64,000 nucleotides of DNA from assembly GCA_047495785.1 (NCBI GenBank), contig JBLDXI010000015.1, forward strand, positions 3,534,001 through 3,598,000, read 5' to 3'. Shown in pieces: positions 36,656-64,000 of the stretch. The DNA is from Lepidodermella squamata. Taxonomy: Eukaryota; Animalia; Gastrotricha. Each line of letters starts with the position of its first letter. Position 1 is the stretch's first letter. Below the pieces are notes generated by a model, which saw nothing but the letters and a program-made list of their open reading frames with translations, did not search any database and was not told the DNA's origin. The position numbers were made by a program, and so were the translations under genes.

Positions 36656-37747
36656 GTTCAGAATAAAATTTGAAGATTTTCGAATCTCATAATGTAGTCT
36701 CGCTAATCTGAAAAAATTGATTACGATGACCTGATACTTTTCTACCGTAAGTCGCATGGGCGATAGTTAAAATAAAGTAACTTGTGGACGGTAGCTTGTG
36801 GACGAATTCTCACAATTGAAGGAATAGCAAGTTAAAATCTTTAACAAAAATTTTATGGGGCAGACTCACAGAGCTAGTTTTAAGATAGAGGTCCTACTCC
36901 TGACTTAGCCTGTTAACGCCATGGGCACCGGATGTTGTGATGAACCAGCATCCAGTGGTTGGAAAAGTAAACAAGTCAGGTGATTTTTCCATTCCCGATT
37001 TTTCATTCATGGACATTTTCTTGATGAAAAACTTGGTGGTACCAGAAAATCCTTCAAATGGTGAACACTGCGATTATTTTTTCAAAATTTTCGGAGCAAT
37101 GTGAAATCGTGAAAAAACTATTCCGTCATTTCAAATACATAATTCGACATTAACTGATTATCGAAATTGAAGCACATTTCGAATAGGGTGGGTAAATCTG
37201 ATCAAGGTCTACATTTTGATGCTTGGAGCGAGCTTGGAAGATTGTTTTCCTGATTTTCTATGATTTTATGGTTTTATGAATCAAGGCGGTTATCGGAAAG
37301 AGTGCTTATGGCGGATGAGGACTAATGCAATCATGGAATGTTTCTTCACCTTCCGTGTCATTTAATCTTTTAACTTCAACCGTAGAACTTTGTCAAAATT
37401 CAAAGCTATATATACTCATATGCATTTGCGAAATATAAGATATGTGTTATGTCATGTGATCGCAGATAGCCATTGCACTCCAAATCTACAAATCCTGATT
37501 GAACGCCCCCTTCAATGTTTTAATCTCATCAACATTACCGACTTCAGAAAATCGCATATTTCCGAGCACTTACAGCTGCTGATCTAGACATCACGTTGAG
37601 CATTCAGCCCCAGACAAGCATCGTCTCGTGACAATTGATCCCTTTATCTTCATATTTCATTTTCTCTACTTATTTTGTTATCTCTTCAGAGGCGGCACTT
37701 GACACTTTCAACTGGTTCAAAATAAGGATATACTTTTAGCGATATTA

Positions 37748-43172: not shown

Positions 43173-45488
43173 ATGAGCGCGATTTCTCTTGGAATACTAG
43201 CTCTTTGCATTCTATGCAGTGCATCCCAGCAGAGCCGCATAGCAACGCAGAACTTGACCATTCTAGCATTGGTACCTGTGACAGGAGCAAGCCCTATGAA
43301 TGGAAAAATTTGCTCTGCCGCTATGCAAGTCGCAGTTGACACTGTGAATGCCAATCGGACATTTTTACCTGACTATTACGTATCGGCTCGATATGTTGAT
43401 GAGGGGCAACAGGCTACTATTGGAATAAGGAATCTTATTGCTTTTTCTGTCGAAAGCGTTATTGATAGAGCTCCAATAATAGTTGGCCCGATGAACGCGT
43501 GCCAATTCATAGCTCCAGTGGCTAGAGGCCTTAATTACGTCCAAGTGACCACCAGATGTGCAGGACCAGTATTCACCGCCAACCGAAAGATGTATCCGAA
43601 TTTGTATCGAATCGCGAGGCCTGGTGATTTGATGGAAATTGAGCTGCTGTACTTCGCCAAGAAAATCGGCGGTTGGCGACAGGTGGGTCTGGTATTCTCA
43701 GCAAGAGCTGCTGCCTTTGGGCCTTACATGCAACTTGTTGCAAGGAAAGCTGGAATCGATATCCTTTTCTATGGAGGCGTCACCGACTTCAACAATGAAT
43801 TCATGTTTTCTCTAAAGCAATCGAGAAGCAGAGTGATAATTGCGTCACTACAGGATTCGCAGTCCATGCTACAATTCTTATGCGAAGCTCATCGAGCGGA
43901 TATCAAAGGACCACAATTCGTGTTCTTGTTGCTGTCTCCAATCATTGATGCCTACAGGGTTGATCTCCCTGCAAATTGTTCTCGTGAGGCTTTCCTAAGG
44001 CAACTCAAAATTGTATTCAGAATTGGCGAGAATAGTGAATCGGCGGACAGCACTAAATTGACTTCACTGGGTTATACTGTTTCAGATTTCGAAAAAAGGC
44101 TGGACAACCGGACAAATCAAGAACGAGGGCAAGAATATTCTGTGAGGTACAACTGTCATGACGCCATGGCTCATGCTTTACTTGCCTTGCATAATGCTGA
44201 TAAGGTGCTTCGAAATAAATCAACTTTTAGGCTGGAACACTTTTCCCATATCCCAGAGACTGTGATGAATATTGTTAATGAAAGTTCAGCTACGACCAAT
44301 ATGGTTTCGCTTTTCGACAACATGGAGTTTTCAGATCGCCTAGAGCGTGACAATAAGGTGGTTTATCTCACACAATGGATCAATGATATTCCCACCAATG
44401 TCTACATGCTTTGGTATCCGCACAAAGACGTTGAAGGAATAACAGACCTAGAGAAGCACGAGTCAAAAATGATCAACAACCCAGTTTGGATAACACGAAG
44501 TGGCAAACCACCGAAAGATCTTTCAAGAACTCTTCACATTGTGGCTGAGGAAACAACAGTTCCGTTGCTTGTTGTGATTGTTATCTTAGCTTTCATGCTA
44601 TCTGTTGTGGCAGTGTCTGCTGTTTTAATTATTTCCATTAAGCAGCAAAAGCTCAATATTATGAATACCAGGTTTGAGAAAATAGCTCTCGGATTACTTT
44701 GCTCTGGGGCATTATTTCTGAATTTAGCGGGAATAATGTTCCAGCTTGGCAGTTCGTCTGTTGTTTGCCCTCTTCGGGTAGTCTTGACTTCACTTGGATT
44801 AGCTTCAATCGTCTTCGCTCTTGTATTCATTACGACAAAATTGGTCGTCGCTATTGGAATGAATGTGGCTACGTCAACCACACATTCTCGATGGAATTCA
44901 GCCTCGTCAAAGCGAGCTGCGAAATCTGTCGCGCTGCAAGGCAATAAGCGGTCGCTCGCTTCGCAGCCTTTCTCTAGAACTCCGGCTCGAGGCATGAAGT
45001 TCTTCTCTTTTGGCGTGATATCATTTGTATCGACTGTGGTAATTACTTGCGCTTGGATGCTAGTTGATCAGCCAAAACAACTTACATCGCTAGGCAACGA
45101 GTCTTACGATGAAATGCTTGACTCTTATTACGTAATAATTACTAAGCAATGTGGATCTGTACGCGAACTCTACTGGTCTCTATCAATCTGCTCCTTAAAT
45201 GTCCTATGCTTGTTAAGTGTGATGCTGAAAGTTTTCACCAGAAGGAAATCACTGTTGAAATATAAAACTCAGCTCATCGGCCTGAAGTACGCCGCTGTTA
45301 ATGCGGTCTTCGTCTTAATTGCCACTCTTGGGTTAGCTGTATCTTTTCAAGATCAGGTTTGGCGCAACGCAATTTGGTCTTTCGGTTTGATAGTATTCGC
45401 TAATTCAATACACTTCTTCGTGGTTGTCTTGCCCTTGGTAATCACGAGTCTCGCGAAGTCAGCTACTGGGTTCTCGGGGCACAACTGA
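43173..45488 (+). CDS. Intronless class C GPCR, GABA-B-like, copy 2 (tandem duplicate)
   Basis: Collinear and highly similar to 37748-40129 including flanks (37510-40560 vs 42910-45860). Confidence 0.85.
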   Translation: MSAISLGILALCILCSASQQSRIATQNLTILALVPVTGASPMNGKICSAAMQVAVDTVNANRTFLPDYYVSARYVDEGQQATIGIRNLIAFSVESVIDRAPIIVGPMNACQFIAPVARGLNYVQVTTRCAGPVFTANRKMYPNLYRIARPGDLMEIELLYFAKKIGGWRQVGLVFSARAAAFGPYMQLVARKAGIDILFYGGVTDFNNEFMFSLKQSRSRVIIASLQDSQSMLQFLCEAHRADIKGPQFVFLLLSPIIDAYRVDLPANCSREAFLRQLKIVFRIGENSESADSTKLTSLGYTVSDFEKRLDNRTNQERGQEYSVRYNCHDAMAHALLALHNADKVLRNKSTFRLEHFSHIPETVMNIVNESSATTNMVSLFDNMEFSDRLERDNKVVYLTQWINDIPTNVYMLWYPHKDVEGITDLEKHESKMINNPVWITRSGKPPKDLSRTLHIVAEETTVPLLVVIVILAFMLSVVAVSAVLIISIKQQKLNIMNTRFEKIALGLLCSGALFLNLAGIMFQLGSSSVVCPLRVVLTSLGLASIVFALVFITTKLVVAIGMNVATSTTHSRWNSASSKRAAKSVALQGNKRSLASQPFSRTPARGMKFFSFGVISFVSTVVITCAWMLVDQPKQLTSLGNESYDEMLDSYYVIITKQCGSVRELYWSLSICSLNVLCLLSVMLKVFTRRKSLLKYKTQLIGLKYAAVNAVFVLIATLGLAVSFQDQVWRNAIWSFGLIVFANSIHFFVVVLPLVITSLAKSATGFSGHN

Positions 45489-49953: not shown

Positions 49954-50105
49954 AGCCGCCATCAAAGCTGCAACGCATTTCAACTTATAAATGTTAAAAT
50001 GTTTCAATATATAAATTGGCTGATTACATCCATTATTTAGTTTGAACATTTGAACTATGGAACATTTAAATATTGAAATATTTTAATTTCTCAAATAAAT
50101 ATAAG

Positions 50106-50363
50106 ATGCTTCGTCGCAAGGTAATAAATCCCGACAAAATCAGCCAAGCAATCCATGAATATCAGAATAGCTCTAAGACAGTAGATAAAATCGCAGCTGA
50201 AGTGGGACTCAGCAGAGGCACGATTTACTATCATTTAGGCAAACAACAACGCGTCTCATCGCTGAAGGGCGGTGGCATCAACGTTAGTCTGATTCCAAAG
50301 GATGTCTCTCATGTCGGCGGCAAGGAAGCTTACCTGCTAAGAAGAAGATTTCTCGGTAAATAA
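50106..50363 (+). CDS. Small helix-turn-helix DNA-binding protein (viral)
   Basis: AIHEYQNSSKTVDKIAAEVGLSRGTIYYHL; AUG in AATATAAGATG context. Confidence 0.7.
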   Translation: MLRRKVINPDKISQAIHEYQNSSKTVDKIAAEVGLSRGTIYYHLGKQQRVSSLKGGGINVSLIPKDVSHVGGKEAYLLRRRFLGK

Positions 50364-50370
50364 TATAAGC

Positions 50371-50706
50371 ATGGAGAAAGGATTTCTTTCATACACAGAG
50401 GTCGATGAAATCGTCGATGAGAAGGATCAAGATATTGACAAACTGAAGCAGGAAGTTGAGATTATCAGCGATCAGTATTCCTCGCTCAAGAGACAGTCCT
50501 CAAATACCCGTATTAAGACTTTGGAGAACGAGAAGGCTGTCATTGAACAGAAATACAGTGATTTGCTGATTGCAAGGGAAAAAGAAGATAACGACCGTAA
50601 GTTACAGAGCCAGAGGCGCAAAGCTGAGCTGTCTGAACGGCGACAGAAAATGAAGTCAGATATAGAGAAATTCATAGCTGAAATGAGGGCGCGACGAGAA
50701 AAATAA
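50371..50706 (+). CDS. Coiled-coil protein (viral), unknown function
   Basis: 111-aa E/K/R-rich heptad pattern; AATATAAGCATG start. Confidence 0.65.
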   Translation: MEKGFLSYTEVDEIVDEKDQDIDKLKQEVEIISDQYSSLKRQSSNTRIKTLENEKAVIEQKYSDLLIAREKEDNDRKLQSQRRKAELSERRQKMKSDIEKFIAEMRARREK

Positions 50707-50724
50707 AAATCGTTTTAATACTTA

Positions 50725-50979
50725 ATGAATACTTACTCGAGTGCCCAAGAAGAAATAATCTCATATATAAAGGTGCTTGTTAGAGAACTTCAGATCGACT
50801 GCTTAAGGACGAACACTCAGCTTCAACGCATTTTTGTTGCATTGAGTGTAATCGCCGCGTTGCTAGGGTATTTTGTAAATAGGGATAGAATTAAAAAGCC
50901 TTCGACCATCAAAGGCAATCATGCTAAAGCAGTTAGAGCACCAAAGAAACGTGTGAAATTTTACTCACCTTTTCGCTAG
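50725..50979 (+). CDS. Small single-TM protein (viral)
   Basis: IFVALSVIAALLGYFV followed by a basic tail. Confidence 0.6.
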   Translation: MNTYSSAQEEIISYIKVLVRELQIDCLRTNTQLQRIFVALSVIAALLGYFVNRDRIKKPSTIKGNHAKAVRAPKKRVKFYSPFR

Positions 50980-50980
50980 C

Positions 50981-51562
50981 TTAAGAGACGTTCACACCGT
51001 GCTTTTTCAGTTCCTCAAGAAATATTTGCGTGCGATCACAATTTAAACTCTTCTGGAGCAACCTTTTCATATCATGGAATTTCTCGTTTTCTCTCATGAT
51101 TACCTGATACTCAGTGTCACTAATGTGGTTATCTTCCAAGGCTGATTTGATCATGTCGCCAATTGAGTTGGCTTTCGACATAGCAAGCGTGGCTATTCGC
51201 TCATGTTTTTCGGCTTTGCGTTCGAACTTCAAGTCAAGCAGGTTGAGAACTAGTATGACCATACCTCCCGAAGCTGCACTGATTTCCAAAAGTAGGCCTG
51301 TGGGAAGGCCCAGTGACATCAGTGCGATTCCACCAATCGCAAGCGATGTTGTGCCGCCCGTAATTCCATGAATAGTAGCTTTGCAAATTGACGAAAAACG
51401 GGAATACCTATTGTAAAGCTTCTTTCTTTTCGATATTTCTGTGTTGAAAACATCATTTAGGCGCCGGAGCTCAGCAAGCCTGAACTCTTGAGTAGAGGAC
51501 ATTTGTAGTCTAGGGGCAGTGGGGTAAATACTTTCTACTGTTTTTAGCTGGTTGTCATTCAT
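50981..51562 (-). CDS. Two-TM membrane-active protein of the type annotated GasderminX in adintoviruses
   Basis: QEFRL.EL....NTEI.KRKKLY..Y, Gly-rich hydrophobic hairpin, K.EKHE.I..LA.SK.NSI...I..AL.D..IS..EY..I..E.EK; first AUG 51562. Confidence 0.6.
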   Translation of the reverse strand: MNDNQLKTVESIYPTAPRLQMSSTQEFRLAELRRLNDVFNTEISKRKKLYNRYSRFSSICKATIHGITGGTTSLAIGGIALMSLGLPTGLLLEISAASGGMVILVLNLLDLKFERKAEKHERIATLAMSKANSIGDMIKSALEDNHISDTEYQVIMRENEKFHDMKRLLQKSLNCDRTQIFLEELKKHGVNVS

Positions 51563-51576
51563 TCTGAATGTATGTA

Positions 51577-52236
51577 TCACGTATTCTTTAGGTTAGAAAT
51601 AATCAAAATGTATGACAGTTGTATGCTTTCGTCAGCTGCTGCAATAACCGTTAAGCTATCATTCAATCGGAATTGCTCTATAAAGGAACAGTATTCATTG
51701 CTACTCTCCAAATTAATATTGTTATAGTTGAAGTATTTCGAGAACAAGTTACCGTTGTTTTTGAAGAAATCAAGAGTGAAGGATGTGGCTCTGTTGTCGT
51801 CCAGCCGGAACCACATTTCCACTCTGGCTGTAACGTCCGCTCGAAACACTAAGCTATCGCTTACTTCAGGCATTCCGGAAATCATGTTATCAAAACTTAG
51901 CTTATTCTCGCGCGAAAGAGAAACCTTGCCAGAGCATATCAATCTGGAATCCCGAATCGCGCCATCGTTTGGATTTATTGGTGGATGGATGTTCGTGAGC
52001 CTAGCATTTTTAAAGTCAACAGTCTGATCGGATTGAATCATTAAACAACTTCGCTCAACCCAATTTTTACTAACAGCATCGTTGTCGAAAACGGGACCAC
52101 CCAAATTTTCGATGCAGTAGCTATTCGCGTTTAGGTTTGCCGCAAATGGAGTACTGCCGTCTGCCCTCAAATAAATTGCTGCCTGTCGTGCATTTTCAAA
52201 CCATTCACTAGGAATGAATATTTCATTCGATCTCAT
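51577..52236 (-). CDS. Putative fibre/spike protein
   Basis: Two copies of a (I/L).N(L/I)..P....D(A/G) stalk motif and a beta-rich C-terminal head. Confidence 0.5.
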   Translation of the reverse strand: MRSNEIFIPSEWFENARQAAIYLRADGSTPFAANLNANSYCIENLGGPVFDNDAVSKNWVERSCLMIQSDQTVDFKNARLTNIHPPINPNDGAIRDSRLICSGKVSLSRENKLSFDNMISGMPEVSDSLVFRADVTARVEMWFRLDDNRATSFTLDFFKNNGNLFSKYFNYNNINLESSNEYCSFIEQFRLNDSLTVIAAADESIQLSYILIISNLKNT

Positions 52237-52729
52237 AATGAGCGATGACTAGATTATACTTATTCCGCCATTGCCTCAGCGTCTTATCGTTAACCGATTT
52301 CACGTGTACGCTCTGTGCCACAAGGTCGTAGCCATGTTCCTGAGCCAGAGCTTTGATAACAAAGTCAAGGTGCATCATATTTTGATCGGGAAAGAGTTCT
52401 GCATAGCCCGAGTCAAACTTAATAAAGCTCGACATCAACCTCTCAAGTTGAGGAGGTAGCATTTCTATACCGCGCTTTTTAATTACAGTCATTAAATGCC
52501 ATTTTCGTTTGTAAGGTACTAATTTGAATGGCGGGGAGTGCTCACAGTATGGATAGCATAAACCGCAGTTTGGGCATACGTTGAAATTCGCCCTTTCGTC
52601 AAGCAAAAGTTCTGTGGCACACGCATCGCAATACACGTAAGGCATAGTAGAAAATGTCTTTCTCACTGATTTGGAATTCTCAAATATATCTATCAGTTTC
52701 TTCAATTCATCTTCAACGGACGCTTGCAT
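52223..52729 (-). CDS. VLTF3-like late transcription factor with N-terminal Zn ribbon
   Basis: CDAC...CPNCG then PYKRKWHL (cf. VLTF3 YKR..HF), N.....FVI..L, K....L..W. Confidence 0.6.
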   Translation of the reverse strand: MQASVEDELKKLIDIFENSKSVRKTFSTMPYVYCDACATELLLDERANFNVCPNCGLCYPYCEHSPPFKLVPYKRKWHLMTVIKKRGIEMLPPQLERLMSSFIKFDSGYAELFPDQNMMHLDFVIKALAQEHGYDLVAQSVHVKSVNDKTLRQWRNKYNLVIAHYEIE

Positions 52730-52892
52730 CCTTTTTATCTACGATGGCATTTCTCTTTAACACTCTTATGAATTTATACTTTGTCATACCGCAGAGTGTA
52801 CAAGATCCTGTCCTGATCGCTCTGTTATTACGAGTTGCTAATTGCTGCTCATTCACTGTATTAGTGTTTTTCCTACAATGCAGGCAATACAT
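52713..52892 (-). CDS. 59-aa zinc-ribbon protein (DUF5679-like), below ORF-track threshold
   Basis: MYCLHCRKNT...TRNNRAIRTGSCTLCGMTKYKF; fills the gap between the protease and VLTF3-like genes exactly. Confidence 0.75.
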   Translation of the reverse strand: MYCLHCRKNTNTVNEQQLATRNNRAIRTGSCTLCGMTKYKFIRVLKRNAIVDKKDASVR

Positions 52893-52894
52893 AT

Positions 52895-53353
52895 CTAGCT
52901 TAACAATAGATTTTTCAGTAAGTCATCATTGTGCGGCGACCCAGTGTTATTGAAGTCCAGCAAAATAGCTAACTTATCCCTACCTTTAGCTAGTTCTCTT
53001 AGAAAGTAAATGGCATAGAAGCCACATGCAACAGAGCCAGGATGCTGTATATCGTGTGTGGAATACCAAATTACTCGTTTTCCACGACGCTGAATGATCT
53101 CATTAGGGCATATAAACCCGAAGCTATCGAAGTAGATTATTTCAGTCGACTTCACAGCCATTGAGACCCAATGACTTCCGCGGTTAACTTTATCGTCCAG
53201 GTTAATGACGTAATATCCTCGTTGAAGTGTAGCAGGAAGGTCGTCCCGAGCGTAACAGCCCTTGAAGTCGTTTCCGAGAAGCCTCTTTAAAGCTTCGGTT
53301 ATCTCAAGATTGGATAGAGGATAAAACCCGCGATTTTTCAGTTTTTTTCCCAC
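52895..53353 (-). CDS. Adenain-like cysteine maturation protease; no in-frame AUG ahead of the catalytic His
   Basis: VINLD....GSHWV, YFDSFG, IQ...SVACGFY (His/Asp/Gln/Cys intact). Confidence 0.9.
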   Translation of the reverse strand: MGKKLKNRGFYPLSNLEITEALKRLLGNDFKGCYARDDLPATLQRGYYVINLDDKVNRGSHWVSMAVKSTEIIYFDSFGFICPNEIIQRRGKRVIWYSTHDIQHPGSVACGFYAIYFLRELAKGRDKLAILLDFNNTGSPHNDDLLKNLLLS

Positions 53354-53916
53354 GGCATGTAAACCCCTTTTCCGAATAAGGTCGGAAGAAATGCACCCAG
53401 TAAGCTTGATACAAGCGGCAATATAAAAGCTCCACCCTGTTGCTCTATGTGGCTTTTAATTGCCTTGCTACTGCCAGCAGGCACAATTTGTCGGGACTCC
53501 AGAAGCGAAACCGCCTTTTGCAGTTCATCTAAATCCTCTTTTGGTATTGTCAGCGACACGCCTTTGCCTACGATCTTGTCAGCTGCTGTACTGGCGAGGG
53601 AACTGGCAAGGCCGCTCAGCGCTGCAACGGCTACAGGGGCTATAAATTTAGAAGCTGTGGCAAGCGCTGGTAACAGGAACCCGCCAGACTGATTCTTCCG
53701 GAGCTGAGTTTTGCTCAGTTTAATATCAAGCCCTTTCATCCTTTGTTTGCTCTTCATTACTTTATCTATCTGCCTTTGCGTCAACAACAACTTGGAACCA
53801 TTTGGATCTGCAAGAAGCTGATCAATTGTGAAACGCAATACAACTTGGCCTGGTTTTTGAAATGCTCTTCTCTGGGTCTCTGTTAGTTTAATGTCGAATG
53901 GAATGTATTTAGTCAT
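53338..53916 (-). CDS. Virion core/membrane-active precursor (adenovirus pX/pVI-like) with multiple adenain sites
   Basis: LLLTQRQI.K, DIKLSKTQL, QSGG|FLLPAL, IVGKG|V, QQGG|AF, LFGKG|V; amphipathic segments. Confidence 0.75.
   Translation of the reverse strand: MTKYIPFDIKLTETQRRAFQKPGQVVLRFTIDQLLADPNGSKLLLTQRQIDKVMKSKQRMKGLDIKLSKTQLRKNQSGGFLLPALATASKFIAPVAVAALSGLASSLASTAADKIVGKGVSLTIPKEDLDELQKAVSLLESRQIVPAGSSKAIKSHIEQQGGAFILPLVSSLLGAFLPTLFGKGVYMPWEKN
53341..53347 (-). promoter_or_regulatory. Candidate -1 ribosomal frameshift slippery heptamer A_AAA_AAC
   Basis: Minus strand TGG GAA AAA AAC TGA: X_XXY_YYZ in frame immediately before the core-protein stop; the protease ORF is in the -1 frame. 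Confidence 0.6.
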
Positions 53917-53937
53917 TATTATTCTAAGTTAGAAAAT

Positions 53938-55311
53938 TCACAGCATGTTAAGGCTTATCTCGAGCTTATCGTCTTTGTAGTTGAAGCCTATTTCTTTTTC
54001 CCTAAAAATGAAACAAAACATAACTAATGGCTTATCGACAGGACTGATTCTAGCTTTAAATGTGACACTCACGCTTTGGTCACCGCGTGAATTATATATA
54101 GCACCGGCATCTACACTTTCCAGATTGAATGCCAGGAAACGGTAAAATCGACAAAAATCAAGGTAACTAAGCTGACTACCAGTGTTCGTGCTTTCGCGAT
54201 CGTTGAAATGGTTCATGTTTTCCTTAATATAGTTATAGAGCCGGTGAGCGTTGAAGCGTGAAAAGTTCATGTTGGCCTCGGCAAACGCCTCCTTATTGTT
54301 TATCATGAGAGAGTAGCTGAATATATTCCATTGAGTGTAAATTTGTGTCAGTTTAGTTTGATACTCTGCGTCTGAGAAGTCTTGCAAGAATACAATATAC
54401 AGCCAGCTTGGTTTTTTCATCTCAGATGTGATTGTCCATTGTACTGAAGAACTATTCACAGCAAACTGGGGGCTCTGAAAGCATTCTAGCGATTGCCATT
54501 TGTAAACTTTCGTGAGACCCGTATTGAAAGCTTTCAAAATGCGTGCTCTAGTTTCAGGCATCAATGTGACTTCCGGAATAAACATATAAGCTGAAGAAAT
54601 CTGGAAATGCATCCCTTCCGGCAAATCATCGTTTTTCCCTATGGCTGCGACTATGGGTTTGGTGTAATTTGGTGTTAATATCACTCGAAATCTCGCCTTG
54701 GTCCACATCCCAAAATAATTTTGGAAGAAAGGAATGTCCCTTAAGTAAAGTGTGACAACCATCTTATGATCTTTAACATACAAGGATCTCAAGAGTAGTC
54801 CCTCGTTGCAGCTGTTCTTCGCAGGATCGAAACTTTCTGCTGTAACTTCAGGAGTCATTTCATAATTGACATGGGCTGGGTAGTCTCTGGCGAAAAGAGA
54901 TTCTTCCCCAAGACTTCGCGCGTAGTCATCCGACCAGTGAATAACGCCCAGCAACGAGCTCCAGTGTTCGTTATAACGTGTTTGCTCTACCTGGTTATCA
55001 TTATCACCTACTTGCACTTCAACTGTTTCAAACATGGATATAACATGGTTCCTAATTGCGTACTTGTCGGTTGCTTTGAAAGCCTGACTATCGTTTCGCC
55101 GGAACTCAACACTCAATTGAATATAGGCTTCCCTCGGCAATAAAAACAACTCACGCAAGTTATATGTAGAAAAGATAAGGCGAGAAGGCTGAGAGGGCTG
55201 ATCCTGTATAAAACTTGTTGCACAAACCTCGGCCCAGCTTTTCCTTTCGAACTGCCGATCATCTATGGTCGGACTCTCAAAGAGACAGTTCACTATTTCG
55301 GATTGAAGCAT
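53938..55311 (-). CDS. Major capsid protein (double jelly-roll, hexon-like)
   Basis: 457 aa, beta-rich; LLPREAYIQL, ISSAYMFIPEVTL, KPSWLYIVF; position in the morphogenesis module. Confidence 0.8.
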   Translation of the reverse strand: MLQSEIVNCLFESPTIDDRQFERKSWAEVCATSFIQDQPSQPSRLIFSTYNLRELFLLPREAYIQLSVEFRRNDSQAFKATDKYAIRNHVISMFETVEVQVGDNDNQVEQTRYNEHWSSLLGVIHWSDDYARSLGEESLFARDYPAHVNYEMTPEVTAESFDPAKNSCNEGLLLRSLYVKDHKMVVTLYLRDIPFFQNYFGMWTKARFRVILTPNYTKPIVAAIGKNDDLPEGMHFQISSAYMFIPEVTLMPETRARILKAFNTGLTKVYKWQSLECFQSPQFAVNSSSVQWTITSEMKKPSWLYIVFLQDFSDAEYQTKLTQIYTQWNIFSYSLMINNKEAFAEANMNFSRFNAHRLYNYIKENMNHFNDRESTNTGSQLSYLDFCRFYRFLAFNLESVDAGAIYNSRGDQSVSVTFKARISPVDKPLVMFCFIFREKEIGFNYKDDKLEISLNML

Positions 55312-55330
55312 TTAAATAGGCATTAGATAT

Positions 55331-55630
55331 TTAGCGTATCAGCTTAAAGCCAGTTCCAGTGTAATTATCGATGTCTCTTTTGATTTTCTTCTCTAGCTCC
55401 TCAATAGCGTGGATAGAGCGCTCAGCTTGTTTTGCCGGCAGCACTTTGTCTGCAAGTTTGTTCGCGGCATAGGCACCTATTTTGTCACCGGCAACTTCCG
55501 CTGCCTTTGATAGAGCTGATTTGGCCAAAGTCTGAACCGGTAAGAGACCGGTAAATCTGTCGAGCATATTTTTTGCGATGTCTACATAACCGCGTCCTAC
55601 GACATATGCTTTTGTTCTGCGATTTTTCAT
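55331..55630 (-). CDS. Small basic/amphipathic core protein (cupiennin-like of adintoviruses)
   Basis: VVGRG|YVDIAKNM...SKAAEVAGDKIG..ANKLADKV; terminal YTGTG|F; first AUG 55630. Confidence 0.65.
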   Translation of the reverse strand: MKNRRTKAYVVGRGYVDIAKNMLDRFTGLLPVQTLAKSALSKAAEVAGDKIGAYAANKLADKVLPAKQAERSIHAIEELEKKIKRDIDNYTGTGFKLIR

Positions 55631-55652
55631 TATAACAAAGTAACTAGAAAAG

Positions 55653-56393
55653 CTAGCGAATATCAAGACCAATACCCCATTTTCTTTCAGTCATCTCCAG
55701 TGGTGCACCAGCCTGGGTGGTGAGCGTTATTTTTATGTTTTGTGTATTAGCATTCGTACAGGACAAGTAGCGTTTCTCATTTGGAACAATGTTAACGTGT
55801 TGACCGAAATTTTTGTTAATCGGACAGGTGAAGATGACATCACTAACCTCCGGGACTAGGCTATTATTGACGACGTTACAGTGAACAAACATCGAGTCAT
55901 TTGACATCGTGATGTTAGGAATATGCTGCCCATTAAAATCTGCCCGGAATTCGCCTTTGTCTACACCTAGAAATTCAGACGTAGCATCATGCTCGATCAG
56001 AAGAGCGTAACCTGGTTGAATTCGAAAGCTCAGTTTATTCAGAACAGTATTGACAGACAAGCTTATGCCGTAAACTTCTGAGCCGTCGATGGTCTTGAAA
56101 TGGCCGTTTCCCTTCATAACAAAGTGAATATAATTGTTATAATCACGAAAAGTGAAGGTTCCATCAGGAAATCGTATTTCAAAAGTTTCGTCTTCTGGAT
56201 CTTTATATCTGAGCTTACTATTACCTGAAGCATGTGATACATTATAAAAAACATCGTAAAAGTGAATGTAGGAAACGGCGATGCTGCGCTTTGTGAAATC
56301 GATCTTATCATTCAGGTAACGATCGATGACGTTGCTGGCGTCCGACCTGTTATTGCAGTAATATTCCAAAGGCAGAAATATTGGATCACCCAT
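55653..56393 (-). CDS. Minor capsid protein (penton, single jelly-roll)
   Basis: FYNVS....N....Y, FPDG.F...D.N, FVHCNVV.NS, DVIFT, FG..V...P, I.I.LT.Q.G. Confidence 0.8.
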   Translation of the reverse strand: MGDPIFLPLEYYCNNRSDASNVIDRYLNDKIDFTKRSIAVSYIHFYDVFYNVSHASGNSKLRYKDPEDETFEIRFPDGTFTFRDYNNYIHFVMKGNGHFKTIDGSEVYGISLSVNTVLNKLSFRIQPGYALLIEHDATSEFLGVDKGEFRADFNGQHIPNITMSNDSMFVHCNVVNNSLVPEVSDVIFTCPINKNFGQHVNIVPNEKRYLSCTNANTQNIKITLTTQAGAPLEMTERKWGIGLDIR

Positions 56394-57489
56394 TTACCAT
56401 TGTTATTAGATTTTCGTATTCAGCTTTGGTCAATCTATTGTTCTTCAAAAGAAAATCTGCAATGCTCACAACTTCGTTATATATTTCAGCGTTATTGTTT
56501 CCCGCTCTGATTTCACCAATCGCGTTTACAAGCCTCTTTTGGGCATCAACAACATCAGTTACGTAAATTCTGTTCCAGATTTTAGAATGGGGTTTGGGTC
56601 GATATCCAGTCAGTTCACAAATTTTTTGATATTGATCATAGTCTTGCTTAGAAAAGTTCACCTTCGGATTGTACCTTTTCAAGAGCAATTGTTTGACACC
56701 ATCACTTATGTCTATATCGGCTAAACCTTGCACTTTACCTTTATTCTTCTTGCGAATCCTTAAAACCCCCCGCTTTATGTCGTCTTTTCTGGCGTAAAAC
56801 CTACCAATTTTCAAATAATTGTTGGATATACCTGTACCAGATTTCTCAAGTAGCACCCGTTGATTCTCAAAAGTCTCAAGCAACGAGTTCTTGAAGTTTT
56901 TCAAAATTTGTATATCATTTTGAATCGATTGATACTGTGGAGAGTCTTTGTATCCTTTTTTAGTGAGTTGAGCTAATTGGGAGCCCAAAACATTTTTATT
57001 ATAGTGCGAAAGAGATACAATAATATGCGCGGGATCAGCCCCAGCCTCTTCAATCTCTTTAGCTGTGGGGAAGTTATGTCTCTTCAAAACTATGTTCTCC
57101 ACTGATTCCTTCGCCTCTTCAGTTGTCGGCTCCGCCTTTGGTAATACCGCTTCCAGACGATGCGGGTGATTAGCTGTTGGTAAGCTTCTCTTTGCTGTTT
57201 GTTTGAGCTCCTTGGCAACTGATCTTATTGCTTCCACAGTTGGCATCTGCCTGTAAGTCTCTTGCAAAGCTGTAAGGGGATCGGGTTCAACATTTACACT
57301 ATGCTTATACTTTAAAGCATATACATCGCCTTTAACCATGGCCAAGTGTCGGTCGTACATCTTTTCCTGCTTATCTAAATCTTCAAGAATTCGAATTTGT
57401 TCATCAGTTGTTAATTCGCGTAGCGGCATATCACTCTGACTAGAATAAATCGCTCCTTGTTCGCCCAGCGGTCGCTCCTCGTTAGCCAC
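56386..57489 (-). CDS. Conserved Polinton protein of unknown function; start uncertain
   Basis: C-terminal KRL...GEIRAGNNN..I.NE...I.D.L motif seen in Polinton proteins; internal KSGTG|I; ORF track start is GTG, first AUG about 20 codons later. Confidence 0.7.
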   Translation of the reverse strand: MANEERPLGEQGAIYSSQSDMPLRELTTDEQIRILEDLDKQEKMYDRHLAMVKGDVYALKYKHSVNVEPDPLTALQETYRQMPTVEAIRSVAKELKQTAKRSLPTANHPHRLEAVLPKAEPTTEEAKESVENIVLKRHNFPTAKEIEEAGADPAHIIVSLSHYNKNVLGSQLAQLTKKGYKDSPQYQSIQNDIQILKNFKNSLLETFENQRVLLEKSGTGISNNYLKIGRFYARKDDIKRGVLRIRKKNKGKVQGLADIDISDGVKQLLLKRYNPKVNFSKQDYDQYQKICELTGYRPKPHSKIWNRIYVTDVVDAQKRLVNAIGEIRAGNNNAEIYNEVVSIADFLLKNNRLTKAEYENLITMVNG

Positions 57490-57629
57490 ATGATCGCTTT
57501 TTGAACGCCAAATGATCGCCCATTGAACGCTCAGTTGAACTCATCTTATATTGGAGATAATCAGCAAAGCTAAGATAATTCAAACTGTTTGATAGATAAT
57601 TTAAACTAATTTCTAATAGCTAAAAATGA

Positions 57630-58322
57630 TTAGGCGAAGATTGAAGCGTAGTTAGCTCTTAGTCTTAGACACTGTGGCTTGCTTTGACCGTCAATGATAA
57701 ACGAACCATGAGGAAGGCTTACGGCTTCATTGTACTTGGCAATAAACTCTGTTGTCTTAATTGAGGGGGCGTATATTCGATGAATTAGGCTCAGCTCCCT
57801 GTTGTCTGCCAGCTTCTTCAGCACAACAAAATCGGCATTATCCCTAATTGTCTTTGGGATCTTAAAATATGACTGCGAAAGATAAAAGGCTGACGCGTTG
57901 TATTTTCGGCATCTTATCCACATTGCACCGATATGTGTTTCTTGCAGCTTCTTTTGCTCCATGCAGATATCGTCGAAAGCATAAGCATGCTGGAAACTTT
58001 TATCCAGGCTCTCAAGAGGCATGACTTCAGAAATGTCATTGGAAGAGTGAACAAGGCTTACTGAAATTCCTTGCTTGGAAAGAATGTCTTCCTTTTGTTT
58101 CTGAAGCCTAATCAAGTACTCGTACTTGTCCTCATCTAGAGTTTTACTATATAAGTAGATCTTGTGAAAAAATGAGTTATGCAGTATAGTCAAAAGATCT
58201 GAAGTCTTTCCGGTCCCGGACGGTCCAATAATAAGACATCGAAAAGGATGCTGAGGGAAAAAGGGCGATCCATTTTTGTACTCCTGTCGCTGTGATTGAA
58301 CGATGCTGTCCCAATTAATCAT
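57630..58322 (-). CDS. A32/FtsK-like genome packaging ATPase
   Basis: PFRCLIIGPSGTGKT (Walker A), YAFDD (Walker B), RCRKYN, LSQSYF.IPKTIRDN. Confidence 0.92.
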   Translation of the reverse strand: MINWDSIVQSQRQEYKNGSPFFPQHPFRCLIIGPSGTGKTSDLLTILHNSFFHKIYLYSKTLDEDKYEYLIRLQKQKEDILSKQGISVSLVHSSNDISEVMPLESLDKSFQHAYAFDDICMEQKKLQETHIGAMWIRCRKYNASAFYLSQSYFKIPKTIRDNADFVVLKKLADNRELSLIHRIYAPSIKTTEFIAKYNEAVSLPHGSFIIDGQSKPQCLRLRANYASIFA

Positions 58323-58358
58323 TTGCTCTTTATTTAGATTTTCAAGTCCTAATGAATA

Positions 58359-59780
58359 ATGTTTGACAGAATAATTAACAGCTTGCCGGTGGAATTTCAT
58401 TTACCGAGTTATCCCGTTCAAGGAGAAATCGTTCCTGGAGGGTCTTATAACAATAAGCAGTCATATAGCTACGCTGGCCCAGGAACACATTTTGCGCAAA
58501 GAATGAGGCAGGGCTACAGAGGTATAAATGAGTTGGACGAGGCAGCCAGAGAACATGACGCTGCCTATCACTTTTACAAAGACAGAGAGCGACGCACCGT
58601 TAGCGATAGAATTCTTGCAGACAAGGCACTCAGGATTGCAAGCGATCTATCGAAAAGTGGTTACGAGAGGGCTATGGCAGCATTTGTCTACAAAACGTTC
58701 GTTGAAGGTGGAATCGCTGACCACCTGCAGGGGAAAGGCATGGTTCTTCGAGATAGGAAACCTGTTAGTTACTCGCAACAAATTCCGAAGCGAAAGACAA
58801 AACAAGAGCCGCCGCGATCAGAAACAGTTAGCAAAATGAAGTTTGAAACATTAGCTGAGGAGCTTCATAAACCCGCAAGAAAGCGGTTTCCAAGACGTCG
58901 CGTTCATGTGCATAACGTTGACGACACATGGGGCATGGACATCGTCTTCATGAACGACTTGACCGATGACAATAATGGCTATAAGTACATTTTAACCGTG
59001 ATATGCTGCTTCAGCAGATATGCATGGGCCGTCCCCTTGAAATCAAAAGACGCAAAAAGTGTTTTCGATGCCTTCTCATCAGTTATAAAGACAAGCCGAC
59101 GACAGCCTAAAAATATTTGGGTCGATGAGGGCAGTGAATTTTATAATTCAATCTTCACTAAATGGTTGAAAGCAAATAAGGTGAATCGGTACTCGACCTA
59201 TGAAAATTTTCATAATCCTATGATCGAGAGGTTTAACAGGACTCTTAAAACTAGAATGTGGAAACGCTTTACACGAAACAACTCACGCAATTGGGTTGCA
59301 ATATTAGATGACCTAGTTAGAGAGTACAACCTTACTAAGCACAGATCGATTCGAATGACGCCAATTCAGGCGACTGATCCAAAGAATAGAGACATCGTTC
59401 ACAACAATTTGTACGCGGAATCAGAGGAAAATAAGTTACTTAAGCCCAAATTCGCTGTTGGTGACATTGTGAGGATCAGTCGACTGAAAGAGACCTTTGA
59501 AAAAGGTTTCCACCCTTCATGGAGTGAAGAACTTCTCAAAGTCGTCAAGGTTAACGAAACCCTTCCTAGAACCTATAAAATTGAGGCTCTAGATGGTGAA
59601 CCAGTAGTAGGTAGCTTCTACGAACAGGAATTGCAGAAATCTTCCCAACAGCAAGAAAACCTTTACCGGGTTGAAAAGATTTTGAGAAGAAAGAAAGTTA
59701 AAGGTAAGGAAATGGTTCACGTCAAATGGGCAGGATATGATAAGCCGACTTGGGAGCCCGCAGATAACTTGTTGGATTAG
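58359..59780 (+). CDS. PLA2-like domain fused to retroviral-type (RVE) integrase with C-terminal chromodomain
   Basis: YAGPGT..NELDEAAREHDAAY (parvoviral PLA2-type); WGMDIV, WVDEGSEF, IERFNRTLK (DDE); YRVEKIL..VKWAGY..TWEP. Confidence 0.93.
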   Translation: MFDRIINSLPVEFHLPSYPVQGEIVPGGSYNNKQSYSYAGPGTHFAQRMRQGYRGINELDEAAREHDAAYHFYKDRERRTVSDRILADKALRIASDLSKSGYERAMAAFVYKTFVEGGIADHLQGKGMVLRDRKPVSYSQQIPKRKTKQEPPRSETVSKMKFETLAEELHKPARKRFPRRRVHVHNVDDTWGMDIVFMNDLTDDNNGYKYILTVICCFSRYAWAVPLKSKDAKSVFDAFSSVIKTSRRQPKNIWVDEGSEFYNSIFTKWLKANKVNRYSTYENFHNPMIERFNRTLKTRMWKRFTRNNSRNWVAILDDLVREYNLTKHRSIRMTPIQATDPKNRDIVHNNLYAESEENKLLKPKFAVGDIVRISRLKETFEKGFHPSWSEELLKVVKVNETLPRTYKIEALDGEPVVGSFYEQELQKSSQQQENLYRVEKILRRKKVKGKEMVHVKWAGYDKPTWEPADNLLD

Positions 59781-59805
59781 TTCAATCATGACCGCACAGT
59801 GAAGC

Positions 59806-60114
59806 CTATGAGAGCAATTTTTGCAGTTTTATTGCCAACATTTGATTTATAATTTCCTCTATATCCTTCGTCGTAAGGTTTTCAGGCTTAGGCTCACACG
59901 TTCTGCCACTTGTGATCGCTCCTTCCATTTGTGAAGTTACTTCATGACATTTTCCCTGTACAGGGTTTGCACGACTTGCTCTAACAACTTCCATAGTTTT
60001 CTTCCAATAGTTTTTGCAAGCTATACGATGCTGATCACGATAGCCTGTCTCGCGTTCTTCTTCAGTCAGATATTTCTTCGGGCGACCTCTTTGCTTAATC
60101 GTGTTTGTAGTCAT
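59806..60114 (-). CDS. Small basic AT-hook protein, divergent from pPolB
   Basis: KQRGRPKKYLTEEER followed by a basic helix. Confidence 0.6.
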   Translation of the reverse strand: MTTNTIKQRGRPKKYLTEEERETGYRDQHRIACKNYWKKTMEVVRASRANPVQGKCHEVTSQMEGAITSGRTCEPKPENLTTKDIEEIINQMLAIKLQKLLS

Positions 60115-60206
60115 TATATATTATCATTAGAAAAAAACTATATAAGATTTTCTGCAATTGCGGAAAATTACTTAAAGATTTTTTTCTTAGTATAATATAT
60201 ACAATC

Positions 60207-63200
60207 ATGACCGACAACAGTGAAACCAATGTAATGGGACCTAACGGTCGTCGTATTAAGGTTGGTGGCCGAGCATACAATACGCTATTGAGGAAGGGTT
60301 TTGAATTAAAAGATAACCGTTGGACGAAGGGTGGGATGCCTTACGAGAGAACCCAACGGAAAACAGTATTAAATCCTATCACGCAAAAATATATTTCTAT
60401 CGGTTCGTCCAATTTCAAAAAACTTGAGAAGGAGTTTTTCTATGACGAAGCGAATAATCAGCTTATGAAACGAGGTGTGAGCAAGATAAAAAGGGGCAGC
60501 CAGGACTATCAGAGGCTGCGTAAAGATGGCTATATCTTGAATTCTGCTGGTGAAATGGTGTTCCGAGGGCAGAAAGAAAATCATGTCATAAATCCTAAGA
60601 CTTTGAAATTCATCAAATGGGGTGGACCAACGTATAACAAGATGATTGCCGACGGCTATATTTATATCGAGCGCATTAACTCTCTCGAGAATAACAATTA
60701 TATGGAATTTAATGAGCAGAAAAATCCCGAGCATTTTAAGAATATCCTCTATAGGTTAGACATTGAAGCTCATAATTCAGGAAGTGATTTCCATCTATTC
60801 ACCGAAAAGGTTAGAGAATCAGTTGTTGATTACGTGCAAGAAAAATTAGAGCAAAATGATAACATTAAAATAGTGTTTAACGCTGATTTGAATTGGAAAA
60901 AAGACAACAATAGTAAATCAGAACATAAATGGTCTTCCGCTGTAAAGGCTGCCCCAGTTATCAGGAAATATGATGACATAGGGAGCGTTGTAGACCAACA
61001 CTTCTCTCAACTTGGTGGTTCCATTGAGAATTACGAGCAGCGCGGCTCCGGATGGATCTTCCAAAACATTTCGCGACTCCGTGTTTGTGCTTTCAGCTAC
61101 TGCCCGTTAGGGACAGGATCTTACATTCCAACACCGAAGTTTATTGCAGATAAAAAGGCCGTTATAAATGTTAAAAACACCGACGATGAATGCATTATCT
61201 GGAGCATGCTGGCTTGCTTGCATCCAGTAGATAAAAATGCACAGGAATCATCCAAGTACAAGTTTTTTAAAAATGAACTGAAACATGACGGTATCAAGTT
61301 TCCCATTTCGTGGAACGACATTTCAAATCTTGAAGATCAGAATAGGATAAAGATCAACGTGATTGAATACAAAGAAAAAGATGGTTGCCATCGCCTCATT
61401 TCATACTACGCGTCGAAGAAACCTTACGCCCAAGAAGTTAACCTTCTGCGAACTACTCTCAGAGACGGTGCTAAGGTGATAGCACACTTCAGCTGGATAA
61501 AAAATTTGAGCCGGTTGCTACCTAGTTCTGATCAGCACAAAAAGCATTGGTGCTTACAGTGTCTGACTGGATTTGACAGCGAAATAAAGCTGAAAGAGCA
61601 TAATTGCATAGTAAATGGCAACGTCATAGTGAAGTTTCCTCCGAAAGGTAGCCGAGTTATTTTCAAAAATTACTACAAGCAGCTTGAAGTACCGTTCGTT
61701 TTCTATTGTGATGCGGAGACTACGCTAACGAATTCCGATGTTCAAAAGGGTAGGTCCTTGATTTATCAGAAGCATGTTGCGAATTCCTTCGGATGTTTAC
61801 TGGCTAGTAAGGTACCTGAAATCCGTTCGAAGTATTGGCAGTTTGAAGGGGCAAATTGTGCGGAGCAGTTCCTGAGATTCTTGATTAAAAAGCAATACAG
61901 TTTGAGGAAATTTATCCAGGAAACCAATAAAGACATGGTGTTATCTCAACCAGAGCAACAAAGTTATGATAATGCACAGCACTGCCATGTTTGCCGAAGC
62001 GCCTTGGGCGACGATAAAGTCCGCGATCATGACCATCTTACAGGCCGTTTCAGGGGAGCTGCTCATAATGCCTGCAATCTGAATTTGAATCTCAAGCATT
62101 CTTTCATCCCGGTTGTTTTTCATAACCTGAGTGGGTACGATTCGCACTTGATAATGCAGGCAGCCGGAAAAGTAGTGAACGAAATCAATGGAGAAAAGAT
62201 TGCAAATTTCAAAAAAGAAGACAAAAAGAAAAGACCAAACCTGTTGACGATTGACGTCATAGCTAATTCCTCGGAAAAGTATTTAAGTTTTAGTATAGGC
62301 AAACTTCGATTTATCGATTCGTTTCAGTTTATGAGTGAAAGCCTGGACCAAATAGTCAGTAATCTGAAAAAATCGGGAAAGAGATTCGCTCATTTTGATG
62401 AACAGCTTTCCAAGTTCACAACTGAACAAAGATCCCTGCTGCTTCGTAAGGGAGTGTATCCGTACGATTATATAGATAGCCTCGACAAACTGAATGAAAC
62501 TCAGCTACCGAATAAGTCACATTTCTCAAACAGACTAAATTCTTGTTCGCTTGATGATAACAAAATCGAAATAACTTCTATATCTGACGAGGATTATGAA
62601 CACGCACAAGCCGTTTGGTCAAAACTGAATTGCAAAACTCTGAAAGACTACCACGACCTGTATTTGAAAACAGATGTTCTCTTGTTAGCAGATTGTTTTG
62701 ACAGTTTTCGAGACACCTGCATAAGCTATTACGATCTGGACCCGGCGCATTATTTAGGTGCACCTGGGTTAAGTTGGGACGCGATGTTGAAATACACACG
62801 TGTTGAACTGGATCTCTTTGATAATAAGGAGATGCTTGAATTCGTTGAAAAAGGCATAAGAGGCGGTATAGCTGTTATTCCTGGGAGGTACGCGAAGGCT
62901 AACAACGAAGGTATGACAGACTATGACGCAAATGCTCCGAAATCGTTTATAATGTATTGGGACGCCAACGCGCTTTATTCTTTCGCGATGACCCAGTGGT
63001 TACCGCAGAAAGACTTCGAATGGATTGGTCCTGAAACAATCACCAAAGATTTCGTGAAGTCAATTGGGGCCAAAGACGAATTCGGGTACATGCTGGAGGT
63101 TGATATCGACTATCCTGCAAGGCTTCATGACTCACATAATGACTATCCGTTTTGTCCAGAGCATATTCTTTGCGAACCGAGCCCTCACATGCAAGATCTG

Positions 63201-64000
63201 CATAAGCAATTAGGACTTAACAGGCCGGCGAAGGTGAAAAAGCTAACACAAAATCTGAACGACAAGAAACATTACGTCATGCACTATCGCGCGCTACAGC
63301 AAGCTCTTGATAATGGTTTAGTTCTGAAAAAGGTGCACCGAGCTTTGAAGTTCAAACAGAGCAATTGGGCCGAGCCCTATATCGCATTCAATACTCGAAA
63401 GCGAAAAGAGGCTAGCAATGAATTCGAGAAGGGGTTTTTCAAACTGATGAATAACGTCATTTTCGGTAAAACTTGTGAGAACGTACGGAATCGCATTGAC
63501 TTAAAACTGGTTACTTGCCCTAAGAAGCTTCAGAAACTCGTAAACAAACCAACATTCAAGGACGCTAAGAAGATAAGTGACGAGCTGTTCAGCGTGGAAA
63601 TGGCAAAAACTGAGATATTTTATGATCGACCAATTATCGTTGGAGCAGCCATTTTGGATTTGTCCAAGGTGCATATGTACGACTTCCACTACAATGTCAT
63701 CAAACGAAAGTACGGCGACAAAGCTAAGCTTCTTTTCACAGACACAGATTCTTTGTGCTACCATATCACAACTGAAGACGTTTACACAGACATGAAACCT
63801 ATCGAAAACCTATTCGATTTCTCTGATTATCCTAAAGATCACTTCCTATTCTCAACTGTCAACTGTAAAACTAACGGCGTATTTAAAGACGAAGCAAAGG
63901 GACGTGTAATACGAGAATTCGCCGGAGCACGATCCAAGGTCTATGCAATTTTGTACTCAGAAAAAGATGAAATAAAAAAGGCGAAGGGAGTTAAGCGGCA
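60207..64000 (+). CDS. polB: Protein-primed family B DNA polymerase (pPolB) with endonuclease VII-like insertion; runs off the window, absent from ORF track
   Basis: Single frame from ATG 60207; YCDAET (ExoI), FHNLSGYDSH (ExoII), RKGVYPYDY, YLKTDVLLLAD, YWDANALY (motif A), KLMNN..FGK (B), FTDTDS (C), KKAKGV. Confidence 0.95.
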   Translation, partial: MTDNSETNVMGPNGRRIKVGGRAYNTLLRKGFELKDNRWTKGGMPYERTQRKTVLNPITQKYISIGSSNFKKLEKEFFYDEANNQLMKRGVSKIKRGSQDYQRLRKDGYILNSAGEMVFRGQKENHVINPKTLKFIKWGGPTYNKMIADGYIYIERINSLENNNYMEFNEQKNPEHFKNILYRLDIEAHNSGSDFHLFTEKVRESVVDYVQEKLEQNDNIKIVFNADLNWKKDNNSKSEHKWSSAVKAAPVIRKYDDIGSVVDQHFSQLGGSIENYEQRGSGWIFQNISRLRVCAFSYCPLGTGSYIPTPKFIADKKAVINVKNTDDECIIWSMLACLHPVDKNAQESSKYKFFKNELKHDGIKFPISWNDISNLEDQNRIKINVIEYKEKDGCHRLISYYASKKPYAQEVNLLRTTLRDGAKVIAHFSWIKNLSRLLPSSDQHKKHWCLQCLTGFDSEIKLKEHNCIVNGNVIVKFPPKGSRVIFKNYYKQLEVPFVFYCDAETTLTNSDVQKGRSLIYQKHVANSFGCLLASKVPEIRSKYWQFEGANCAEQFLRFLIKKQYSLRKFIQETNKDMVLSQPEQQSYDNAQHCHVCRSALGDDKVRDHDHLTGRFRGAAHNACNLNLNLKHSFIPVVFHNLSGYDSHLIMQAAGKVVNEINGEKIANFKKEDKKKRPNLLTIDVIANSSEKYLSFSIGKLRFIDSFQFMSESLDQIVSNLKKSGKRFAHFDEQLSKFTTEQRSLLLRKGVYPYDYIDSLDKLNETQLPNKSHFSNRLNSCSLDDNKIEITSISDEDYEHAQAVWSKLNCKTLKDYHDLYLKTDVLLLADCFDSFRDTCISYYDLDPAHYLGAPGLSWDAMLKYTRVELDLFDNKEMLEFVEKGIRGGIAVIPGRYAKANNEGMTDYDANAPKSFIMYWDANALYSFAMTQWLPQKDFEWIGPETITKDFVKSIGAKDEFGYMLEVDIDYPARLHDSHNDYPFCPEHILCEPSPHMQDLHKQLGLNRPAKVKKLTQNLNDKKHYVMHYRALQQALDNGLVLKKVHRALKFKQSNWAEPYIAFNTRKRKEASNEFEKGFFKLMNNVIFGKTCENVRNRIDLKLVTCPKKLQKLVNKPTFKDAKKISDELFSVEMAKTEIFYDRPIIVGAAILDLSKVHMYDFHYNVIKRKYGDKAKLLFTDTDSLCYHITTEDVYTDMKPIENLFDFSDYPKDHFLFSTVNCKTNGVFKDEAKGRVIREFAGARSKVYAILYSEKDEIKKAKGVKR

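Follow-up and report, generated by a model that had tools for sequence, protein, structure and literature searches.

In a Polinton-type element of the gastrotrich Lepidodermella squamata, the reading frame of an adenain-like protease overlaps, in the -1 frame, the end of the gene that lies before it. Sequence comparison indicates that this junction is a real and conserved feature, which most likely represents a gag-pro-like -1 frameshift in a double-stranded DNA element. Since no AUG precedes the active site of the protease and the overlap lies at a conserved slippery site, the enzyme is probably made by low-level -1 ribosomal frameshifting at the heptamer A_AAA_AAC.

The Polinton-type element and its genes

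The element lies within positions 50,000-64,000 of the window, i.e., the whole stretch of 64,000 nucleotides that was analysed, with the minus-strand gene order capsid gene, 192-aa gene and protease; its right end falls beyond the window edge. The flanking genes, viewed by eye, suggest that the host is likely an animal. An rve integrase with chromodomain, an A32 ATPase and a cysteine protease, all recognised by Pfam, place it among the Polinton/Maverick elements of the adintovirus type. Its genes beyond the junction include the following:

53938..55311, minus strand: likely major capsid protein ORF, 457 aa, assigned from size and position
57630..58400, minus strand: A32-like packaging ATPase (PF04665, E 2.8e-10)
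58356..59780, plus strand: ORF with PLA2-like domain, rve integrase and chromodomain (PF08398, PF00665, PF00385)
60111..63998, plus strand: long ORF with family B polymerase motifs recognised by eye, running past the window edge

The 457-aa ORF had no match in Pfam, and the sole Pfam match of the 1296-aa polymerase-like ORF was Endonuclease_7, with no PolB match at E 0.01. According to the ORF list, the ORFs of the element are uninterrupted.

Several further observations were made in the window. The PLA2-like domain is in frame with the integrase (58356-59780, plus strand), with an adenain-type L-Q-G-K|G site in between, and GxG sites resembling it are also found in the ORFs of 119 and 384 aa. 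TAAATG forms the start of the ATPase gene (58400), a 246-aa ORF (56393) and the likely capsid gene (55311), all on the minus strand, and most genes of the element have an A+T-rich leader; these features possibly constitute a common late promoter or initiator word. Before 50002 (region 50002-50142), contigs of X1 and X2 part from the window, a divergence that likely lies near the left end of the element, and loose poly(A) ends occur in X2 behind 50119 and 50142. Elsewhere, two ORFs similar to each other, neither with an intron and each about 770-800 aa long (37703-40129 and 43173-45488, plus strand), appear receptor-like by eye, a large extracellular domain being combined with several membrane helices.

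Architecture of the junction

The features of the junction are as follows:

53338..53916, minus strand: upstream 'core-like' ORF, 192 aa, from ATG 53916 to TGA 53340-53338, ending PWEKN
53341..53347, minus strand: phased slippery heptamer A_AAA_AAC, seen in the sequence, kept in variant contigs and with counterparts in relatives
53338..53340, minus strand: zero-frame stop TGA adjoining the heptamer, its position shared by all 9 close homologs
52895..53455, minus strand: protease reading frame (-1), stop to stop, opening after TAA 53458-53456
53351..53353, minus strand: GTG in the protease frame, context GCC-GTG-G, built from the Pro-Trp codons of the 192-aa gene
53365..53379, minus strand: adenain-type site L-F-G-K|G, predicted release site from sequence and adenain rule
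53297..53332, minus strand: hairpin proposed in the earlier note, not supported

The 192-aa gene ends in TGG GAA AAA AAC TGA. An earlier note on this DNA had reported that A_AAA_AAC is in phase and directly adjoins the stop, that the protease overlaps the end of the 192-aa gene in the -1 frame, and that no AUG is available between the in-frame upstream stop and the catalytic His; all three statements were confirmed (heptamer at 53347-53341; reading frames checked; a GTG at 53353). The first ATG of the protease frame lies 4 codons past the catalytic His, and the frame is open in -1 across the site both in the window and in relatives. The heptamer conforms to the rule for canonical eukaryotic -1 frameshift sites, X_XXY_YYZ with Y being A or U and Z not G, as given in the accessible part of PMC7618472. 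Few codon positions of the element carry a phased canonical heptamer, namely 13 of 4009 across 11 ORFs. The TGA directly 3' of the heptamer may act as a pause element.

The L-F-G-K|G site is located nine codons upstream of the shift site. Its presence had been noted before, with the cut placed at G|V; by the adenain rule (M/I/L)XGX|G, as stated in the accessible text of PMC4246237, the cut would instead fall at K|G.

The protease and the upstream protein

As previously described, the catalytic residues of the adenain ORF are intact (codons His 53173, Asp 53128, Gln 53047 and Cys 53026). The protein was assigned to PF00770 (E 1.6e-4, above the Pfam cut-off) and could also be aligned to 1avp. 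Its predicted structure (pLDDT 89; residues 1-7, counted from the GTG, disordered) found its best structural match in the adenovirus protease 4wx4 (Z 15.9, rmsd 2.4, 142 aligned). This match begins at model residue 11, which indicates that the folded domain starts about six codons past the heptamer, from about 53323. With a His-Asp/Glu-Cys triad, an oxyanion Gln and an adenain fold in the model, the predicted enzyme is classified as adenain-like (clan CE).

The 192-aa protein comprises a folded N-domain (residues 1-80), two GG-hydrophobic helix segments and a C-terminal GxG-V-Y-x-P-W-E tail, the structure model being confident only for residues 1-80 (pLDDT 73-93). No Pfam, PDB or fold match was obtained, the whole model having been searched. 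The designation 'core protein', introduced in the earlier note, is thus kept here as a label by analogy: the likeness to pVI/pX-like core or cement proteins consists of GG/GxG sites and hydrophobic helices, with no match in sequence or fold. The N-domain (residues 1-80) is also present in the distant DNA locus L145 and in distant Polintons.

Variant contigs and substitution pattern

The A-run at the junction was bridged without gaps by three variant contigs of two studies, which argues against an assembly slip. Two of them belong to run X1 (depth 708 and 231, span 53223-53388), which is possibly related to the source of the window, and one to X3 from another study (depth 3, span 53309-53557). 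These are assembled contigs in place of the raw reads originally proposed for this check, and the matches listed represent 10 of 21 records. No contig of X2, possibly an RNA run, spans the junction, which carries no information about expression.

In total, 15 differences from the window were listed. Upstream of the junction, six out of eight affect third positions and are silent in the core frame, and each of the six would alter the -1 frame. Three of the 15 fall within the first codons past the site, representing a variable linker. Inside the protease domain, all four differences fall on third codon positions when read in the protease frame, and three are silent. No difference was listed in 53338-53388, where no more than about two would be expected. 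Because substitutions are mostly silent on either side, each in its own frame, both genes look functional, with the frame switch at the junction; this switch from core-frame-silent to protease-frame-silent positions supports a programmed core-protease fusion.

Conservation of the junction among close relatives

Conservation within the close clade was deduced from proteins rather than read from DNA. A search in the range of 105-336 aa yielded 27 homologs of the 192-aa protein, the nine closest sharing 40-68% identity with it. All nine end in PWE-x(0,1)-K-[N/K/I]-stop with a GxG just before, and the GxG is present in 10 out of 10 rows of alignment A2. The spacing between Trp and stop varies by one codon, and the A-run still adjoins the stop. 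No fused form was found among the nine close core homologs, the search range being slightly short of a full fusion.

On the protease side, 11 homologs were available, of which seven are called from an [M/L]G start, one from a few codons later and three from an internal Met. The [M/L]G start corresponds to the Pro-Trp-Glu tail read in -1. A two-frame compatibility test was applied to eight N-termini (the seven [M/L]G-start proteins and P0040). Seven match a real core tail, in the -1 frame only, and these matches require A_AAA_AAY, A_AAA_AAG or A_AAA_AUY ahead of the stop. The eighth agrees with the generic pattern, which none of 1560 internal 7-mers did. For three fitting core/protease pairs, the longest contigs are of equal size (4182, 7279 and 2915), so that both proteins likely reside on one contig. 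In P0039, the core tail is read in -1 over 18 residues and CTG or TTG is forced at the position of the GTG, where P0008 has a Leu start.

The comparison across relatives suggested in the earlier note therefore revealed a conserved -1 overlap and heptamer, but some of the heptamers are poorer. Three of the nine close cores end in KK, and one ends in KI, which corresponds to no canonical heptamer. Heptamers with a final G are disfavoured in eukaryotes, according to the accessible part of PMC7618472.

Distant relatives

Among viral sequences, 278 loci yielded 214 protease ORFs, 155 of them non-redundant and with the His motif. An ATG at least 35 codons before the His was present in 148 of the 155, four were open at the contig end, and three had none; lack of an ATG is thus unusual. 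L108, which has no ATG, was left uncounted, as it resembles a broken copy of L097.

In three loci, a core-like gene overlaps the protease in -1 and carries a phased heptamer, namely L145, L182 and L057, in which the heptamer precedes the stop by 1, 1 and 4 codons, respectively; as background, 47 of 574 ORFs carry a phased heptamer within their last five codons. L145 has an N-domain homologous to that of the 192-aa protein (probability 96.6%) and the heptamer A_AAA_AAC, together with an additional GxG site within the -1 linker and an in-frame ATG past the site. This locus was found via a pattern containing an A-run, the pattern having matched away from its heptamer. L182, among the matches listed by a junction-blind scan, has a phased A_AAA_AAA/AAG and no ATG before the His, and its upstream gene is weakly similar to the core gene (E 7e-4, probability 27%). 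L057 contains a U_UUU_UUA heptamer and in-frame ATGs downstream. In L067, L073 and L098, weakly similar upstream genes are followed by a protease with its own ATG. The coexistence of AUG-bearing and AUG-less relatives indicates that both strategies exist. Relatives with an independent AUG and no heptamer had been named as evidence against frameshifting; L145 and L057, which keep a phased heptamer, possess such an AUG, and this counts against frameshifting.

L056 was not counted: it shows a -1 overlap with A_AAA_AAG, but the heptamer lies about 28 codons before the stop, and its upstream ORF is a fragment with no identified family. The viral proteases L002-L005, L008, L009 and L063 carry an in-frame fusion at the N-terminus to an unrelated domain of about 170-280 aa. 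Viral contigs, scanned with the proteases of the window and of L057 and with A2, P0044 and A4, yielded no loci, the GTDB scan two, neither of them informative, and the phage collection none. In the junction-pattern scan, 46 of 47 matches were attributed to chance.

A large distant lineage, comprising at least 7993 short protease ORFs (P0046-P0165 being members), has the junction in several frames. Among the best 120 of 7993 free protease ORFs, a sample that favours ORFs open upstream, the core tail was found in +1 in 96 cases, in frame in 15 and in -1 in one, with eight unclassified; this sample weighs against the -1 reading, but may not show the native frame of the lineage. Seven of nine distant-lineage core proteins stop at the junction, one runs on and one is fused. 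In-frame core-protease ORFs are represented by P0021, P0044 and P0045, and the run differs among copies.

RNA structure downstream of the heptamer

The hairpin that had been put forward as a stimulator did not stand out from shuffled sequences (z between -0.07 and +0.96 in five folded segments, and -1.0 for 141 nt). When 53270-53340 was folded, it appeared in the minimum free energy structures and was absent from the centroid. A simple pseudoknot search at the window junction was equally negative, 54 of 60 shuffles equalling or beating it, and the window has no supported stem-loop or pseudoknot at the 5-9 nt downstream spacing of -1 frameshift signals. Comparison with shuffles likewise gave no stimulatory hairpin or pseudoknot in L056, L057 and L182. 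A second hairpin of 8 bp, 44 nt downstream, was rejected as too distant; one variant substitution lies in its stem. L145 alone has a stem (13 bp, 4-nt spacer, z -5.2, reached by 0 of 200 shuffles), and at 1627-1706 (minus strand) of L145 the codons of the conserved protease PLSN motif form the 3' arm of this strong stem. The gag-pro-like reading of the earlier note is supported by the conserved overlap with its slippery site and by the substitution switch, but its stimulatory hairpin is not supported in this element.

Alternative explanations for protease expression

A near-cognate NUG start within the Pro-Trp codons, reached by a short transcript or by reinitiation past the nearby stop, would dispense with frameshifting altogether. 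GCC-GUG-G is a good Kozak-type context (purine at -3, G at +4), as is ACC-(C/U)UG-G in P0039, the GUG lies 13 nt upstream of the stop, and seven of 11 protease homologs are called from the [M/L]G start at this place. However, NUG-G is dictated by the conserved Pro-Trp-Glu, and the codon is non-AUG in all three readable cases (window, P0008 and P0039). Each of the 15 other ORFs starts with AUG and has an A+T fraction of 0.53-0.93 in the preceding 15 nt, versus 0.47 at the GUG, and six ATGs lie upstream of the GUG within the core gene. Such a start would also leave the phased A-run unexplained, as well as L182 and L145, both without Pro-Trp, and is considered unlikely. Polymerase slippage on the A-run during transcription, of the potyvirus PIPO/Ebola GP type, would produce the same fusion. 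It tolerates non-canonical heptamers and requires no RNA structure, and runs of at least six A or T were seen or deduced at nearly all junctions (five being forced for the KI pair); editing at GAAAAAA and A-runs is known from the accessible part of PMC5009743. Against slippage of this kind, the A-run is codon-phased and tied to the stop, the L145 stem lies at ribosomal spacing, and the part of the element inside the window shows no gene for an RNA polymerase. Host Pol II is not known to slip much on such short runs. We regard this route as improbable too, whereas a core-protease fusion through either a ribosomal or a polymerase slip, taken jointly, is very probable.

Two further explanations appear highly improbable. 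An alternative splice could put an upstream AUG into the protease frame, and AG dinucleotides are indeed available at the GKG codons just upstream of the junction; yet the ORFs of the element are uninterrupted, and splicing needs neither a conserved slippery site nor a conserved stop position. The junction could also be a broken or mis-assembled single ORF, or the protease gene could be dead, for which the in-frame ORFs P0021, P0044 and P0045 of the distant lineage, with their variable run, might be cited. This is countered by the same run in all three variant contigs of both studies, by the silent-site pattern on both sides and by the lack of fusions among the close core homologs within the search range, just short of a full fusion, given above.

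A proposed model and its relation to known systems

Under the preferred explanation, -1 ribosomal frameshifting, most ribosomes would end at the TGA and release the 192-aa protein, while a few would slip by -1 on A_AAA_AAC, pass the stop and produce a fusion of structural protein and protease. The slip rate is probably low because the element in the window has no RNA stimulator; a pause could come from the adjacent stop or from the invariant nascent PWE tail. Effects of the nascent chain on frameshifting are known (PMC7618472, accessible part). The fusion would presumably be packaged via the 192-aa protein, and the protease would then cut the Gx|G site (L-F-G-K|G), freeing itself in a form that keeps the conserved tail at the N-terminus. 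From the zero-frame product, this tail would be cut off as a short peptide, which by analogy is reminiscent of pVIc. A low output of fusion would suit an enzyme such as that of adenovirus, packed at about 7-50 copies per particle as stated in the accessible text of PMC4246237.

RNA viruses, retroelements and tailed phages offer well-known cases of programmed -1 frameshifting, and A_AAA_AAC is the MMTV heptamer. The arrangement resembles retroviral gag-pro (MMTV, SRV-1 and HTLV) in that a structural gene is followed by a protease in -1, so that a minor fusion would dose and package the enzyme. In contrast to the retroviral systems, the element is double-stranded DNA, its protease is a clan CE cysteine protease, the copy in the window has no pseudoknot or stem, and the stop adjoins the heptamer. 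Frameshifting at MMTV gag-pro is treated in the accessible part of PMC5009743, which also covers the G/GT genes of phage lambda, where a low-level -1 shift takes place close to the 3' end of a gene for morphogenesis in a double-stranded DNA virus. Lambda differs by its bacterial ribosomes and by a product that is a chaperone extension, not a protease. The adenovirus adenain with pVI/pVIc offers a likeness in fold (Z 15.9), in Gx|G and GG|X sites, in the few copies per virion, and in a short C-terminal peptide freed from a structural precursor. Adenain, however, has a gene to itself and, sliding along DNA, encounters pVIc in trans (PMC4246237, accessible text), whereas here the tail would be in cis; by this analogy, the tail peptide might play a pVIc-type role as protease cofactor.

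The same virus group has been connected with -1 shifts before. For adintoviruses, the accessible part of Buck et al. (PMC11071296) contains KnotInFrame-predicted slippery sites, alternate Penton C-termini and potential Hexon-Adenain fusions. The partner there is the major capsid protein or penton, whereas here it is a small gene between capsid and protease, and the protease has no AUG of its own; the section on shifts in the accessible part presents no conservation analysis. Among the matches listed, 'Hexain' in the accessible supplements of PMC11071296 denotes adabscovirus proteins. This junction is not described in the accessible portions of PMC5803895, PMC8097293, PMC11131425, PMC8502044, PMC11161782, PMC12567637, PMC5544889, 10.1101/2021.01.25.428050 and 10.64898/2026.10.13.758929. 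In the accessible full-text literature, from which subscription journals are mostly absent, no demonstrated -1 shift was found in virion-building genes of Polintons. The earlier suggestion that such a mechanism is undescribed for Polintons accordingly holds for this junction, but not for predicted -1 shifts at other adintovirus genes.

A wider reading, doubtful at present, is that several Polinton lineages make their protease by a gag-pro-like -1 shift, mostly with no RNA stimulator, the pause being due to the stop codon or the nascent peptide, and that the G-V-Y-x-P-W-E tail is a built-in pVIc-like activator, by analogy the in-cis counterpart of the adenovirus in-trans activator. If true, a conserved shift between structural protein and protease would explain how the protease is dosed and packaged in Polintons, and would argue for selection on particle maturation. 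Many Polinton proteases would then carry false start annotations or be recorded as broken genes.
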